Source: Escherichia phage G4. Taken from it: DNA of 5,577 bases. Each line of letters starts with the position of its first letter. Position 1 is the stretch's first letter. A program made the translations under genes and the position numbers. A model generated the notes under the pieces. The model did no database searches. It saw only the letters and a program-made list of their open reading frames with translations, and was not told where the DNA came from. Shown here piece after piece: positions 1-5,577 of the stretch. Location of the stretch: the sequence record NC_001420.2, one strand, 5' to 3'.

Positions 1-3
1 TGC

Positions 4-33
4 TTGACTAATACTCAATCACCACTCTAATAT
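4..33 (+). promoter_or_regulatory. Candidate sigma70 promoter for gene A (PA): -35 TTGACT (4-9), 18-nt spacer, -10 TAATAT (28-33)
   Basis: Sequence match to -35/-10 consensus in the H-A intergenic region, where phiX174-type phages carry PA. The predicted start near nt 40 would give a leader containing the GGAGG SD for ATG 59. Prediction from the hexamers only. Confidence 0.4.
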
Positions 34-58
34 GCCTCCCATCAAACGGAGGCTTTTC

Positions 59-1723
59 ATGTTTAAAGTACATTCTGACTACTTCAGCAAACCTAACATC
101 GACGCAATCAAACCTCTCGTCGAAACTGCTGGTATGTCTGTTCTTACTCAATCTCCAAACCTCCGTATCTGGAAACAGTGCAATACTCGCATCAAATTAC
201 TGGAAGAAATCCTTGCTCACTATACAAATGGTATTCGCCGTGACGACAATGGTGACTTCTGGATGAATCCCAACTCTCAACTCGCAACTACTATTGCCTA
301 TCGTGCTCATCACAAAGGCCATAACCCTAAGTTCAAACAATACCCAGAAACCTTCACTCTGGACGACATTATTACTGGTAAACCAATCCCTCAAACTGCC
401 CCTGACGAATTACAACTCTCCGATGAAATCGTTGAAGACTATCGCCTTACAGTCCTCTCCATAATCGAAGAATTGCAAGAATGCTATGACGTGCTCGGAC
501 AACTTGATATTAATAACACTATAGACCACAAACCCCTCGGTAATGACCATTGGAACCTCCTCTATGAAAAACCCGTATACAAACATTGGTATCAGCTCGT
601 TTCAAATCGACCCCTTAAAGATATCCGCGCCGATTACAACTATGCAAAGGCTAAGGGTGTTAAAGATGAGTGCTCAAAAATCTTGGAGGAGTCAACTATG
701 AAGTCTCGACGTGGCTTTACCGTTCAAAGATTAATGAATGCTATGCGTACTGCCCATTCTAAGGGCTGGTATGTCGTATTCGATACTCTTACTCTAGCCG
801 ATGACCGCTTAAAGGATTTCTATGATAATCCCAATGCTCTTCGTGACTACTTCCGTGATATTGGTCGTATGGTGCTTACTGCCGAAGGTCGCTCGGTGCA
901 TGACTCATCTTCCGACTGCTATCAGTATTTTTGTGTGCCAGAGTATGGTACACAGCACGGTCGTCTACATTTCCACGCAGTGCATCTTATGCGCACACTT
1001 CCTCTGGGTTCTCTGCACCCTAACTTCGGTAAGCTGGTACGCATCAATCGGCAAATAAATAGCTTGCAAAACACGTGGCCTTATGGTTACTCTATGCCCA
1101 TCGCAGTCCGGTACTCCCAAGACGCATTCTCTCGCGCTGGCTGGCTCTGGCCTGTGGACTCAAAGGGTGAACCCCTTAAAGCTACCTCGTATATGGCTGT
1201 AGGCTTCTACGTTGCTAAATACGTTAACAAAAAATCAGATATTGACATGGCCGTAAAAGGCCTAGGGAATAAAGAATGGAACAATTCACTCAAAACCAAA
1301 ATCAACCTCATACCCAAGAAAGTGTTCAGAATACGAATGTCTCGCAATTTCGGAATGAAACTGTTATCAATGGCTCACCTGTCAGCGGAAACCCTGATGG
1401 AACTGACCCAAGTGGGTTACGACGTGACCCCGTTCAACAACATCTTGAAGCAGAACGCCAAGAAAGAGCTCAAATCGAGGCTGGCAAAGAAATCTGTCGC
1501 CGACGTTTTGGAGGCGCAACCTGTGACGACGAATCTGCTAAAATTCATGCGCAATTTGACCCGAACAATCGGAGCGTCCAACCTACAGAGTTTTATCGCT
1601 TCAATGACCACGAAATTAACAAGTACGGATATTTCTGATGAAACCAAAAACTACGTTGCTTCTGCAGGAATTGCTGTTGCTAACTTACGAATTAAATCGA
1701 AGTGGACTGCTGGTGGAAAATGA
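59..1723 (+). CDS. A: Replication initiation protein A (rolling-circle HUH endonuclease); 554 aa from ATG 59. The ORF track's upstream in-frame ATG at 32 would give 563 aa.
   Basis: Long ORF with HUH motif HFHAVH (nt 968-985) and the paired catalytic tyrosines in [15 protein letters not shown] (Tyr codons at 1208-1210 and 1220-1222), both typical of phiX174-type gpA. The C-terminal half aligns almost residue for residue with recalled phiX174 A (e.g. [29 protein letters not shown]). ATG 59 is preceded by GGAGG (48-52) at 6-nt spacing; ATG 32 has no Shine-Dalgarno (SD) and lies inside the candidate -10 element. Stop TGA 1721-1723 overlaps the gene C start (ATGA). Confidence 0.9.
510..539 (+). 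other. Origin of viral (+) strand rolling-circle replication; gpA recognition and nick site (conserved 30-mer)
   Basis: Exact match to the 30-nt origin CAACTTGATATTAATAACACTATAGACCAC, which is conserved among phiX174, G4 and relatives and lies inside gene A. In phiX174 gpA nicks between the G and A of CAACTTG^ATA, which corresponds to between nt 516 and 517 here. Confidence 0.88.
698..1723 (+). CDS. A*: A* protein, an in-frame internal initiation product of gene A (341 aa)
   Basis: In-frame ATG at 698 preceded by strong SD GGAGGA (685-690) at 7-nt spacing. The product begins MKSRRGF..., matching the recalled phiX174 A* N-terminus (MKSRRGFAIQRL...), and the 341-aa length equals phiX174 A*. 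Expression of A* from this genome is inferred, not seen. Confidence 0.6.
1276..1638 (+). CDS. B: Internal scaffolding protein B (120 aa), wholly nested in gene A in a different frame
   Basis: 120-aa ORF beginning MEQFTQNQ... and ending ...[45 protein letters not shown], closely matching recalled phiX174 B (MEQLTKNQ... [10 protein letters not shown]... FYRF...GYF). Same length as phiX174 B. Stop TGA 1636-1638 overlaps the K start (TGATG). Confidence 0.92.
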
Positions 1724-1808
1724 GGAAATTCAATCTCAACTTAAAAAACTCGAGGTCGTCTTACTTTGCAACCTTTCGCCATCATCTCAACGTGCTGGCA
1801 AAAACTGA
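1638..1808 (+). CDS. K: Protein K (56 aa), small non-essential protein overlapping the A/B end and the C start
   Basis: Not in the supplied ORF track because it is short. Hand translation from ATG 1638 gives [56 protein letters not shown], stop TGA 1806-1808. It matches recalled phiX174 K (…[20 protein letters not shown]…LLCDLSPS…) and has the same 56-aa length. It is in the third frame relative to A and C. Confidence 0.85.
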
Positions 1809-1974
1809 CGCCCTTGACGAGGAGAAATACTTAAATATGTTAGGTGCTCTCCTCAAGGACTGGTTCCGGTACGAAGAACATTTCGTGCATGGTAAACAAT
1901 CAATGCTTGACATACTGAAAGAACGTGGCCTATTATCCACATCGTCAACTGACACAAACCACAAAGGAAACTGA
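1720..1974 (+). CDS. C: Protein C (84 aa), involved in the switch to ssDNA synthesis and packaging
   Basis: ATG 1720-1722 overlaps the A stop (ATGA). Product [58 protein letters not shown]...ILKERGLL matches recalled phiX174 C ([42 protein letters not shown]...DWFRYESHFVHG...ILKERGLL). The ORF-track start at 1702 is a GTG extension and not the real start. Confidence 0.9.
1907..1936 (+). promoter_or_regulatory. Candidate sigma70 promoter for the late operon (PD): -35 TTGACA (1907-1912), 18-nt spacer, -10 TATTAT (1931-1936)
   Basis: Perfect consensus -35 and a 5/6 -10 inside the 3' end of gene C, about 40 nt upstream of the D start. This is the same relative position as the phiX174 PD promoter as I recall it. 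Confidence 0.5.
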
Positions 1975-1975
1975 A

Positions 1976-2434
1976 ATGTCTAAATCAAACGAATCTGCTG
2001 TAGCCTTTCAAACTGCTATCGCTTCTATCAAACTTATTCAAGCATCTTCTGTTCTTGACTTGACAGAGGACGATTTTGACTTCTTAACTCGCGACCGTGT
2101 CTGGATTGCTACCGACCGTTCACGCGCTCGCCGTGCTATCGAGGCTTGCGTATATGGAACACTGGACTTTGTCGGGTATCCTCGCTTTCCTGCTCCTGTT
2201 GAGTTTATTTCTGCCGTCATTGCTTATTACGTTCATCCCGTTAACATCCAAACCGCCTGTCTCATCATGGAAGGTGCTGAGTTTACCGAAAACATCGTCA
2301 ATGGTGTTGAACGCCCCGTTAAAGCCTCTGAACTGTTCGCCTTCACTCTTCTTGTTCGCGCCGGAAACAAAGATCTTATCGGTCACGCTGAAACAAACAT
2401 CCGTGAACAGTTACGCGCTCAAGGTGTCATGTAA
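1976..2434 (+). CDS. D: External scaffolding protein D (152 aa)
   Basis: ATG 1976 preceded by SD AAGGA (1964-1968) at 7-nt spacing. Product MSKSNESAVAFQTAIASIKLIQASSVLDLTEDDFDFLT...VWIATDRSRARR...ACVYGTLDFVGYPRFPAPVEFI.AVIAYYVHPVNIQTACLIMEGAEFTENI is near-identical to recalled phiX174 D, with the same 152-aa length. The track start at 1925 is a GTG extension. Confidence 0.95.
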   Translation: MSKSNESAVAFQTAIASIKLIQASSVLDLTEDDFDFLTRDRVWIATDRSRARRAIEACVYGTLDFVGYPRFPAPVEFISAVIAYYVHPVNIQTACLIMEGAEFTENIVNGVERPVKASELFAFTLLVRAGNKDLIGHAETNIREQLRAQGVM

Positions 2435-2444
2435 AGACCTTTGA
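2154..2444 (+). CDS. E: Lysis protein E (96 aa), nested in gene D in the +1 frame; single-gene lysis protein (MraY inhibitor class)
   Basis: ATG 2154 lies inside D in another frame. Product MEHWTLSGILAFLLLLSLFLPSLLITFIPLTSKPPVSSWKVL...LKPLNCS has the N-terminal transmembrane segment with the conserved LAFLLLLSL.LPSLLI.FIP core of recalled phiX174 E (MVRWTLWDTLAFLLLLSLLLPSLLIMFIP...). Stop TGA 2442-2444 lies 10 nt past the D stop. The track start at 2097 is a GTG extension. Confidence 0.85.
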   Translation: MEHWTLSGILAFLLLLSLFLPSLLITFIPLTSKPPVSSWKVLSLPKTSSMVLNAPLKPLNCSPSLFLFAPETKILSVTLKQTSVNSYALKVSCKDL

Positions 2445-2476
2445 TTTTATCGTCTTCACTTTTAAGGAGTTATGTA

Positions 2477-2554
2477 ATGAAAAAATCAATTCGCCGCTCT
2501 GGTGGCAAATCTAAGGGTGCCCGTCTCTGGTATGTAGGCGGAACACAATACTAA
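2477..2554 (+). CDS. J: Small basic DNA-binding/packaging protein J (25 aa)
   Basis: Not in the ORF track (too short). ATG 2477 preceded by SD AAGGAG (2464-2469) at 7-nt spacing. Hand translation gives MKKSIRRSGGKSKGARLWYVGGTQY, stop TAA 2552-2554. The C-terminus ARLWYVGG matches the phiX174 J C-terminus (…GARLWYVGGQQF), and the short 25-aa form is the G4-type J as I recall it. Confidence 0.85.
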   Translation: MKKSIRRSGGKSKGARLWYVGGTQY

Positions 2555-2562
2555 TCTTTTAT

Positions 2563-2587
2563 GTGGGACCGCGGTCCCACTCTATTT
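2563..2587 (+). terminator. Perfect 18-nt palindrome (GTGGGACCGCGGTCCCAC, 2563-2580) followed by a T-rich stretch (CTCTATTT); candidate partial terminator after gene J
   Basis: The palindrome is self-complementary over all 18 nt and would fold on mRNA as a GC-rich hairpin of about 7 bp. It sits in the J-F intergenic space, where phiX174-type phages have a leaky terminator. The downstream U-tract is short and interrupted, so termination would be inefficient. Confidence 0.45.
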
Positions 2588-2599
2588 AAGGATACAAAA

Positions 2600-3883
2600 A
2601 TGTCTAACGTTCAAACATCTGCGGACCGTGTACCTCATGACTTATCTCACCTTGTCTTTGAGGCTGGTAAAATTGGCCGCCTCAAAACTATCTCTTGGAC
2701 GCCTGGTGGTGCTGGTGACTCTTTCGAGTGTGATATGGTTGGCGCTATTCGTCTGTCCCCTCTTCGTCGTGGCCTCGCTGTTGACTCACGCGTTGATATC
2801 TTTCCTTTCTATATCCCACACCGTCATATCTACGGTCAGCAGTGGATTAACTTTATGAAGGATGGCGTTAATGCCTCCCCTCTTCCTCCTGTTACATGCT
2901 CCTCTGGTTGGGACTCTGCTGCTTATCTCGGTACCATTCCGTCTTCTACCCTTAAAGTGCCTAAATTCTTACATCAGGGCTATCTGAATATTTATAATAA
3001 CTACTTCAAACCGCCTTGGTCTGATGACTTAACTTACGCTAACCCATCCAATATGCCTTCTGAGGATTATAAATGGGGCGTACGTGTCGCTAACCTTAAA
3101 TCTATCTGGACTGCGCCACTTCCACCGGATACTCGTACATCTGAAAACATGACTACTGGTACATCCACTATTGACATTATGGGCCTTCAAGCCGCATACG
3201 CTAAATTACATACGGAACAGGAACGTGATTACTTCATGACCCGTTACCGTGACATTATGAAAGAGTTCGGCGGTCATACATCCTATGATGGTGACAATCG
3301 TCCTCTTCTGCTCATGCGCTCTGAATTTTGGGCATCTGGCTATGACGTAGACGGTACTGACCAATCTTCTCTCGGTCAATTCTCTGGTCGCGTTCAGCAG
3401 ACCTTCAATCACAAAGTCCCACGCTTCTATGTTCCTGAGCATCGCGTAATTATGACTCTGGCGGTTACTCGCTTTCCGCCTACTCATGAAATGGAAATGC
3501 ACTATCTTGTAGGTAAAGAAAACTTAACTTATACCGATATTGCTTGTGACCCTGCACTGATGGCTAACCTGCCACCTCGTGAAGTATCCTTAAAAGAATT
3601 CTTCCACTCCTCACCCGATTCTGCTAAATTCAAAATCGCTGAGGGCCAATGGTATCGTACACAGCCTGACCGTGTCGCTTTCCCATATAATGCTCTGGAT
3701 GGATTCCCGTTCTACTCTGCTCTCCCGTCCACGGAACTAAAAGACCGTGTACTGGTTAACACTAATAACTACGATGAAATCTTCCAGTCTATGCAGCTTG
3801 CACACTGGAATATGCAAACTAAATTTAACATTAACGTTTATCGTCACATGCCTACGACACGTGACTCAATCATGACCTCGTAA
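2600..3883 (+). CDS. F: Major capsid protein F (427 aa)
   Basis: Product MSNVQTSADRVPHDLSHLVFEAGKIGRLKTIS...SPLRRGLA.DS.VDIF.FY.PHRH.YG.QWI.FMKDGVNA.PLP...IDIMGLQAAYA.LHT.QERDYFM.RY...LPTTRDSIMTS is highly similar along its length to recalled phiX174 F. ATG 2600 is preceded by SD AAGGA (2588-2592) at 7-nt spacing. The upstream in-frame ATG at 2561 lies inside a palindromic hairpin, has no SD, and its 13-aa extension has no homology. Confidence 0.95.
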   Translation: MSNVQTSADRVPHDLSHLVFEAGKIGRLKTISWTPGGAGDSFECDMVGAIRLSPLRRGLAVDSRVDIFPFYIPHRHIYGQQWINFMKDGVNASPLPPVTCSSGWDSAAYLGTIPSSTLKVPKFLHQGYLNIYNNYFKPPWSDDLTYANPSNMPSEDYKWGVRVANLKSIWTAPLPPDTRTSENMTTGTSTIDIMGLQAAYAKLHTEQERDYFMTRYRDIMKEFGGHTSYDGDNRPLLLMRSEFWASGYDVDGTDQSSLGQFSGRVQQTFNHKVPRFYVPEHRVIMTLAVTRFPPTHEMEMHYLVGKENLTYTDIACDPALMANLPPREVSLKEFFHSSPDSAKFKIAEGQWYRTQPDRVAFPYNALDGFPFYSALPSTELKDRVLVNTNNYDEIFQSMQLAHWNMQTKFNINVYRHMPTTRDSIMTS

Positions 3884-3892
3884 CGCAACAAA

Positions 3893-3999
3893 GGCCGCCC
3901 CTCTACTGGTCAGATACCTGCCCAATGTGGGGCGGACCGTGCCTACGGAGATACTCGAGTCTCCGATACATGGACGGCGAAAGCCGCCGTCCCTACTGC
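3893..3999 (+). other. Cluster of three GC-rich stem-loops in the F-G intergenic region; candidate complementary (-) strand origin / primase recognition structure
   Basis: Stem-loop 1: CCGCCCC (3895-3901) pairs with GGGGCGG (3929-3935), 7 bp with a 27-nt loop. Stem-loop 2: CGGAGA (3946-3951) pairs with TCTCCG (3960-3965), 8-nt loop. Stem-loop 3: GGACGGCG (3972-3979) pairs with CGCCGTCC (3985-3992), 5-nt loop. A repeated motif GCCGCC..(C)CTACTG follows stems 1 and 3 (3894-3908 and 3983-3998). The G4 complementary-strand origin recognised by DnaG primase is known to lie in the F-G intergenic region and to consist of stem-loops. Confidence 0.6.
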
Positions 4000-4019
4000 A
4001 AAGCCAAAAGGACTAACAT

Positions 4020-4553
4020 ATGTTCCAGAAATTCATTTCTAAGCACAATGCTCCAATTAACTCTACTCAGCTTGCTGCTACTAAAACCCCAGCTGTAGCG
4101 GCACCTGTTTTATCTGTGCCTAACTTAAGTCGCTCTACTATTCTAATCAATGCAACAACCACAGCCGTTACAACTCATTCAGGCTTGTGCCATGTTGTTC
4201 GCATTGATGAAACAAACCCAACAAATCATCACGCTCTATCTATTGCAGGTTCGTTATCAAACGTCCCTGCTGATATGATTGCTTTTGCCATTCGTTTTGA
4301 GGTCGCTGATGGCGTCGTTCCTACTGCCGTCCCGGCCTTATACGACGTCTATCCAATCGAAACCTTCAATAACGGCAAAGCAATCTCATTTAAAGATGCT
4401 GTTACCATCGACTCACATCCCCGCACCGTCGGTAACGACGTTTATGCGGGAATCATGCTCTGGTCTAACGCTTGGACCGCCTCTACTATCTCTGGCGTCC
4501 TCTCTGTTAATCAGGTAAACCGTGAAGCAACCGTCCTTCAACCTCTGAAATAA
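4020..4553 (+). CDS. G: Major spike protein G (177 aa)
   Basis: Product begins [10 protein letters not shown] and ends ...LSVNQV.....LQPLK, matching the conserved N- and C-termini of recalled phiX174 G (MFQTFISRHN ... LQPLK) with internal motifs (YDVYP, VTID..PRT.GN.VY.G.M.WSN). SD AAGGA (4008-4012) at 7-nt spacing. Confidence 0.93.
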
Positions 4554-4563
4554 GGATTATCCT

Positions 4564-5577
4564 ATGTTTGGCTCTATCGCTGGCGGTATCGCCTCCGCAC
4601 TTGCCGGAGGCCTTATGGGTAAATTATTTGGCGGCGGTCAGTCCGCCGACTCTACCGGAATCCAAGGCAACGTCCTTGCTTCCGACAACAATGTTGTAGG
4701 TGCTAATGATGCTGGTATTAAATCTGCTATTCAGGGCTCTACTGTCCCTAACTCTCAGGAAGCTGCTCCCTCTGCTATCTCTGGCATCCTTGCCGACTCT
4801 GGCAAGCATGCGCTCTCGTCTCTTACCAATGCTGGTGCAAATAAACTCATGGAGGCTGTCGGCCTTTCTAAGTCTGCCTCTGACAAGGGCAAGGACACAA
4901 AAGACTATCTCGCCGCCGCATTCCCCGAGCTCAACCCATGGGAACGTGCTGGTGCTGGCGCTTCTAGTCCAGGCATGCAAGACGCTGGCTTCCAAAATCA
5001 GAAGGAGCTAACCAAGATGCAGCTTGACAACCAAAAGGAAATCGCTAAGATGCAAAACGAAACTCAGAAGGAAATTGCTGGGCTTCAATCTATTACATCA
5101 CGCGAAAATACTAAGGATACTGTCTATGCTCAAAATGAAATGCTCGCGTATAACCAAAAAGAGTCTATGTCACGCGTTGGCGCTATTCTCGAAAACACAA
5201 GCCTCACCAAACAGCAACAAACTTCTGAAATTATGCGGCAAATGCTTACTCAGGCTCAAACCGCAGGTCAATATTTTACAAATGACCAAATCAAGGAGCT
5301 TACGAGAAAAGTTGGTGCTGATATTGATGCTGTTCGCGCTAACACTGCACGCACCCATGTAGAAACCGACCGCTCAAAACAGGAAGTACAAAACTCCCGT
5401 TATGCCTCTTCTCAGGTAGGTAAAACCGCTAAGGACGTGTCCAATGCAATTACTGATACAGCTGGTTCTATTGTTGATTATTTTCGTGGTGCTGATCAAA
5501 AAGTGGCAGACGTTTACAACAACTATTTCAAAGATGGCAAATCGAAAGGAATAGAATCCAATCACCGCTCCAAATAA
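4564..5577 (+). CDS. H: Minor spike / DNA pilot protein H (337 aa)
   Basis: Product [26 protein letters not shown]...[24 protein letters not shown]...[77 protein letters not shown]...[31 protein letters not shown] is highly similar to recalled phiX174 H, with a glycine-rich hydrophobic N-terminus and a central coiled-coil-like region. SD AAGGA (4552-4556) at 7-nt spacing. Stop TAA is the last 3 nt of the window. Confidence 0.95.

Follow-up and report, generated by a model that had tools for sequence, protein, structure and literature searches.

The viral-strand origin of Escherichia phage G4 is already known, since the late 1970s, and papers from 1978 to 1982 reportedly describe G4-specific nicking. 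The literature of the 1980s, which reportedly also describes the cleavage of G4 RF DNA by phiX174 gpA, divided the origin in three, with an AT-rich spacer set between a recognition sequence and a binding ('key') sequence. Many other HUH rolling-circle replicons have hairpin origins, as do the CRESS-DNA viruses and geminiviruses, which carry a nonanucleotide in the hairpin loop, and the pT181-type plasmids. According to a review, these systems have in common a site-specific nick by a tyrosine of an HUH-type or related initiator, a covalent 5'-phosphotyrosine and a double-strand origin with separate 'bind' and 'nick' parts. The closest described system is that of phiX174, for which the mechanism is established. 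The phiX174 record J02482 contains the origin 30-mer CAACTTGATATTAATAACACTATAGACCAC at 4299-4328 and a rep_origin annotation ('origin of viral strand synthesis') at 4306. A 2026 saturation-mutagenesis preprint on phiX174 places the nick at G4305/A4306 and names Y343/Y347 as the catalytic tyrosines of gpA and H263/H265 as its HUH residues.

Our analysis covers a window of 5,577 nucleotides, which is the whole stretch of DNA presented here. A megablast search of the phage collection matched it to AF454431.1 (Escherichia phage G4, which is placed in the Microviridae, Bullavirinae) with 99.6% identity across 1-5577 and a shared start coordinate. The window shows 21 differences from this record (G4 isolate Anc), none of them near the origin; among them are two swapped pairs of neighbouring bases (TC/CT at 1044-1045 and AG/CA at 4097-4098). 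The pattern of these differences would fit an older G4 sequence record.

The phiX174 30-mer is found in a single copy in the window, at 500-529 on the + strand and with 0 mismatches. A search allowing up to three mismatches still returned this match only, and at the same threshold no match was obtained in any of 200 dinucleotide-preserving shuffles of the window. The original prediction had placed the origin at 510-539, which is shifted by +10. The interval 510-539 reads TTAATAACACTATAGACCACAAACCCCTCG, and is composed of TTAATAACACTATAGACCAC (origin positions 11-30) and AAACCCCTCG (530-539), ten bases for which none of the comparisons showed conservation. It leaves out CAACTTGATA, and hence the recognition decamer and the predicted nick site. 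Since the part with the cleavage site is missing, the error matters for the plasmid cloning experiment that was proposed along with these coordinates. Once they are corrected to 500-529 the interpretation is supported, and we consider it almost certain that 500-529 (+) is the G4 viral-strand (stage II/III) rolling-circle origin. The coordinates of the features are collected in Table 1.

Table 1. Features of the G4 viral-strand origin and its initiator gene, in window coordinates
Feature	Position	Strand	Basis or remark
Viral-strand origin (ori+), phiX174 type, CAACTTGATATTAATAACACTATAGACCAC	500..529	+	Unique exact match; phiX174 identity; top-ranked gene A window
Recognition/cleavage decamer CAACTTGATA	500..509	+	Invariant in 14/14 lineages; unique in window
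Predicted nick	between G506 and A507	+	Homology with phiX174 G4305/A4306; bases 506/507 are G/A
Spacer TTAATAA, origin positions 11-17	510..516	+	A+T-only in G4; sequence varies, length fixed
Second invariant block CACTATAGAC, origin positions 18-27	517..526	+	Invariant in 14/14 lineages
Last codon of the 30-mer, CAC (His)	527..529	+	Least constrained part; AAG in Mimer, CAA in L025
Gene A, gpA (rolling-circle initiator acting on the origin in its own coding sequence)	59..1723	+	AF454431 annotation; Pfam
A* (internal in-frame start)	698..1723	+	AF454431 annotation
HUH metal-binding motif His-Phe-His (HFH), codons	968..976	+	Aligns with phiX174 H263-F264-H265
Two catalytic tyrosines, YVAKY codons	1208..1222	+	Align with phiX174 Y343, Y347
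Differences from AF454431	87, 432, 761, 775, 1016, 1044/1045, 2230, 2706, 2709, 2804, 3418, 3443, 3586, 4097/4098, 4966, 4969, 5214, 5277, 5492		

The G4 site resembles the phiX174 origin in all 30 nucleotides, in its gene A position upstream of the A* start, in its reading frame (phiX174 Q107-H116) and in its strand. The exact conservation relative to phiX174 that had been claimed holds against J02482 4299-4328. The initiators belong to the same family, with their HUH and YxxxY motifs aligned, and only the context differs, as the N-terminal region of gpA is longer in G4 and the flanks are only ~47-49% identical. Four marks of a phiX174-type origin are found here, namely the 30-mer, the gene A location upstream of A*, a Phage_GPA initiator with HUH and YxxxY motifs, and synonymous constraint. 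The origins of the Alphatrevirus phages alpha3, St-1, phiK and WA13 have the same gene A location, frame and spacer length, although their gpA is only ~43-45% identical to that of phiX174. They read CAACTTGATAaTAgTAACACTATAGACCAC, which is identical to G4 at positions 1-10 and 15-30 and differs at two spacer positions (T11 to A and A14 to G), both changes altering the encoded amino acids (QLDNSNTIDH). Of the alignment that was originally suggested, with phiX174, alpha3 and St-1, the identity holds for phiX174 and fails at positions 11 and 14 for the other two. With the CRESS-DNA virus, geminivirus and pT181-type origins, the G4 origin would have the nick chemistry and the bind/nick division in common. 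The stem-loop of the CRESS-DNA virus, geminivirus and rolling-circle plasmid origins is not seen in G4, where the 30-mer is predicted to be unpaired, and the G4 origin lies inside the coding sequence of its own initiator whereas the hairpin-type HUH origins are intergenic. The + strand carries all 11 genes annotated in AF454431 as well as the origin in the orientation that is nicked, which identifies it as the viral (packaged) strand, as had been claimed.

For the analysis of conservation inside gene A we took the origin-containing open frames from nine genomes, aligned their proteins and back-translated the alignment to codons. The 30-mer corresponds to ten whole in-frame gene A codons in every one of the nine genomes, at 500-529 in G4, so the description of the origin as embedded in the gpA coding sequence is correct. 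The conserved block in the codon alignment begins and ends exactly at the 30-mer boundaries. Gene A of G4 and phiX174 is 69.7% identical at the nucleotide level overall, 47% and 49% in the 150-column flanks and 100% in the site, in agreement with the heavy divergence elsewhere that had been noted. Between G4 and alpha3, identity is 93% within the site and 31-48% in its flanks, with 54.8% over the whole of gene A. No other 30-nt stretch of gene A scores as high as 500-529, whether two, three or eight genomes are compared.

It might be asked whether this block is conserved for the sake of a peptide that is essential to gpA, in which case the constraint would act at the protein level and the DNA would not be a cis site. 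The block does consist of exactly ten codons in frame, and 8/10 of the encoded residues are identical in G4, phiX174 and alpha3. The third codon positions tell otherwise: among these three phages all ten are invariant in the origin, compared to 76/335 (22.7%) in the remainder of gene A that precedes the gene B overlap (P ~4e-7). Where a degenerate amino acid is conserved, its codon is the same in 8/8 cases in the origin and in 32/121 cases elsewhere (Fisher P = 5e-5). Every natural change that we observed in the origin is non-synonymous (I to N and N to S in alpha3, N to L and N to G in the uncultured contig L025, and in the last codon H to K in Pectobacterium phage Mimer or H to Q), the reverse of the pattern expected from selection on the protein. 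The segment is also wholly absent from A*, which starts downstream of the origin, so that the residues encoded by the origin are present in gpA only. The frozen third positions and codons, together with the non-synonymous natural changes, argue that the constraint acts on the DNA and not on the peptide, and we judge the protein-level explanation to be very improbable. The site serves gpA as DNA and at the same time supplies ten of its codons, which is why the synonymous positions of the origin are frozen. The DNA-level part of the dual constraint that had been proposed can therefore be demonstrated from the invariant third positions and identical codons.

The 2026 preprint provides experimental evidence from phiX174 that bears on the same question. 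Synonymous mutations were reported to be detrimental in the nine A codons Q107-D115, which was ascribed to ori+, and H116 is not listed. In our alignment Q107-D115 corresponds to window 500-526 and H116 to 527-529, so the 27 mutation-sensitive nucleotides coincide with the part conserved by Mimer and L025. The second invariant block, 517-526, falls within these 27 nucleotides. A full-text literature search for the origin sequence returned unrelated primer matches only.

The length of a conserved block alone is not diagnostic of a cis site, as blocks in the overlap of genes D and E tie with or exceed the origin. Window 2180-2209 is a 30-nt exact match to phiX174, equal in length to the origin, and 2177-2209 is a 33-nt exact match to alpha3, which is longer than the origin block. 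Double coding, of gene D together with the N-terminal membrane segment of E, is presumably the cause of this match, and not a cis site. The origin is set apart by its barely alignable, singly coding gene A surroundings, in which only its synonymous sites are frozen. Two further exact matches to phiX174 were observed, one of 29 nt at 1685-1713 (end of gene A, K overlap, just before the C start at 1720) and one of 28 nt at 912-939 (gene A, ~30 nt upstream of the HUH codons).

Another signal embedded in the gene could also have preserved the DNA, for example a promoter for sigma-70, a terminator or a DNA or RNA structure. By eye, TTGATA and TATAGA within the origin do look like promoter hexamers, but they are only 10 nt apart. 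Our scan found neither a promoter nor a terminator at the origin, and no promoter site in 300-750. A single-strand DNA fold of 470-560 showed no hairpin at the origin and left the whole 30-mer unpaired (MFE -4.3 kcal/mol, z = +0.18), so this region folds no better than its shuffles. The phiX174 annotation puts the origin at the homologous position and the transcription starts at other sites, 3962 and 4899. An embedded signal of another kind is thus extremely improbable, and we retain the viral-strand origin as the explanation.

The same scans and folds pointed to other elements of the window. Upstream of gene A there is a promoter-like TTGACT-18-TAATAT at 4-33, followed at 34-53 by a terminator-like hairpin (GCCTCCC...GGAGGC, then TTTT) that ends shortly ahead of position 59, where gene A is annotated to start. 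The gene A open frame extends over 32-1723, and an in-frame ATG at 32 precedes the start annotated in AF454431. This ATG is located at the -10 element of the promoter and is therefore unlikely to be the real gene A start. The J-F intergenic region contains a perfect hairpin GTGGGACCGCGGTCCCAC at 2563-2580, which is followed by a T-rich run and is terminator-like. In the F-G intergenic region, 3884-4019, the + strand folds as single-stranded DNA into three strong stem-loops (~3893-3938, 3946-3965 and 3972-3992), with an MFE of -29.1 kcal/mol and z = -4.69; 0/200 shuffles were as stable. We take this region to be the origin of the complementary strand of G4, which depends on primase and is distinct from the viral-strand origin.

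The distribution of the 30-mer among relatives allowed us to look at natural variation. A blastn search with the 30-mer alone found it exactly in 564 phage records, and those we sampled are phiX174-like and G4-like. We added uncultured relatives by pattern scans of IMG/VR and of a metagenome collection. One of these, contig L021, has a gpA ~52% identical to that of G4 and keeps the exact 30-mer; no other exact match between its genome and the window is as long as the origin block (31 nt). Mimer has ~49% nucleotide identity in gene A, and its first 27 origin nucleotides are unchanged, followed by aAg, with differences at positions 28 and 30. This 27-nt block is again its longest exact match to the window. 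The IMG/VR contig L025 is ~50% identical in gpA and 44% in gpF, and its origin reads CAACTTGATATattaggCACTATAGACCAa. In a comparison of 14 distinct Bullavirinae-like lineages, no variation was seen at positions 1-10, 18-27 and 29. Changes occur at positions 11-17, 28 and 30, and outside the 30-mer the flanks are not conserved.

An exact match of 30 nt amid 47-49% identity resembles a tiny gene-conversion tract, and recombination among the Bullavirinae is known in general. The identity with phiX174 could on these grounds be attributed to a recent horizontal exchange of a short patch instead of long-term purifying selection. Against this, the same block boundaries are found in every lineage examined, including those with ~50% gpA identity and different hosts (Mimer, L021 and L025), and the spacer variants are clade-specific and fixed within clades, as for ATAGTAA of the alpha3 type. 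Recent exchange is hardly credible in view of these observations; long-term purifying selection on the origin explains them better.

Mimer is a distant Bullavirinae-like phage that keeps 27/30 origin bases, and its gene A has an unusual annotation. In its record (L005, ON872163) gpA is annotated on the minus strand at 2389-4022 as two CDS, 3069-4022 and 2389-3021, and the origin-containing open frame is only 984 nt. Gene A of Mimer may genuinely be split, or the two CDS may reflect a frameshift or an error of sequencing.

The variation raises the question whether the universally constrained origin is really a 30-nt unit. It might instead be bipartite, with the two 10-nt blocks CAACTTGATA and CACTATAGAC exactly 7 nt apart, a spacer that is constrained in length but not strictly A+T, and three free bases at the end. 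This reading of the aligned sequences is based on four sequence variants, one of which (L025) is a metagenomic contig of unknown viability, and we offer it tentatively, as possible rather than probable. The decamer CAACTTGATA is unique in the window at full identity, the next-best sites carrying 2 mismatches. The spacer was exactly 7 nt long in 20/20 IMG/VR matches although 3-14 nt were allowed; variation in spacer length was rejected, as the search with this range returned the same 20 contigs. Its sequence is ATAGTAA in the alpha3 group and TATTAGG in L025. The ATAGTAA spacer is common to all 17 tabulated alpha3-type sequences and to four further metagenome contigs. In the metagenome scan, spacers with a base other than A at position 13 gave 0 matches, and those with a base other than A at position 14 gave only the four alpha3-type contigs and no new spacer variant. 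The pattern of natural variation is consistent with the older division into recognition sequence, AT-rich spacer and key sequence, and CACTATAGAC at 517-526 is presumably the part by which gpA binds the duplex.

The pattern scans also returned partial matches of 16-20 nt in the larger IMG/VR contigs L032-L042. We rejected these as chance matches, as the contigs have no nucleotide or gpA/gpF similarity to the Bullavirinae. Three of them (L036 at 2610-2629, L038 and L041; 10.7-30 kb) have a 20-nt match, TTAATAACACTATAGACCAC (positions 11-30), with identical flanks in common. In L036 the match is found in a small ORF adjoining an ORF that resembles, by eye only, a T4-type major capsid protein. 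We judged this match to be chance within one unrelated phage family.

The product of G4 gene A is a member of the Pfam family Phage_GPA (PF05840, E = 1.7e-60). It is 554 aa long compared to 513 aa in phiX174, the N-terminal region being longer in G4. Both His residues of the HUH motif are invariant in all compared genomes, and G4 gpA aligns with phiX174 also at E254 (Glu), R261 and T202/T204. On the evidence of these alignments G4 gpA is an HUH nuclease of the Phage_GPA family with all catalytic motifs present. Our PDB search found no solved structure of a gpA relative, which agrees with the statement in the 2026 preprint. From an AlphaFold 3 model, the authors of the preprint proposed that F455 and F471 of phiX174 gpA form a strand-separating wedge. 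The aligned G4 codons are at window 1544-1546 and 1592-1594. Both residues are F in G4 and phiX174; the pair is I, T, N or A with S in the alpha3 group, Q and F in L021, S and F in L025, and L and F in Mimer. Position 455 of gpA is thus poorly conserved across the subfamily despite the conserved origin. The alpha3 group, which has an altered spacer, has neither wedge Phe. We considered covariation between the spacer and the wedge residues and rejected it for want of a consistent pattern, since Q455 occurs with the canonical spacer in L021 and F471 with an altered one in L025.

Homology with phiX174 suggests how the G4 origin would work. Cleavage would take place in supercoiled RF between G7 and A8 of the 30-mer (G506/A507), leaving gpA linked to the 5' end. 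In the proposed order of events, gpA would bind to 517-526, the 3' invariant block, in supercoiled replicative-form DNA, and the spacer (510-516) would open and leave the 5' decamer (500-509) exposed as a single strand. The + strand would be cut between G506 and A507 by one of the two tyrosines (codons 1208-1210 and 1220-1222), assisted by Mg2+ bound to the HUH motif (codons 968-976). In this scheme gpA remains joined to the 5' phosphate of A507 and the 3'-OH of G506 primes the host polymerase. When synthesis has gone once around the circle and regenerated the site, the second tyrosine would cut it and ligation would resolve the first linkage, with a circular + strand released as the outcome.

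Beyond annotation these results matter little. The coordinates of the G4 ori+ are fixed at 500-529, with the nick predicted at 506/507, and + is confirmed as the packaged strand. The origin also illustrates neatly how a coding sequence can hold a frozen cis element, and any recoding or redesign of G4-like genomes must spare these codons. The comparative pattern, with two invariant 10-nt blocks, a fixed 7-nt spacer and an unconstrained 3' end, may help a little in finding the origins of uncultured Bullavirinae-like contigs. The bipartite reading only refines the old phiX174 mutational work, but if it is true, the AT-rich spacer would be mainly a ruler, and divergent Bullavirinae-like phages could share origin use, their origins being cross-compatible.
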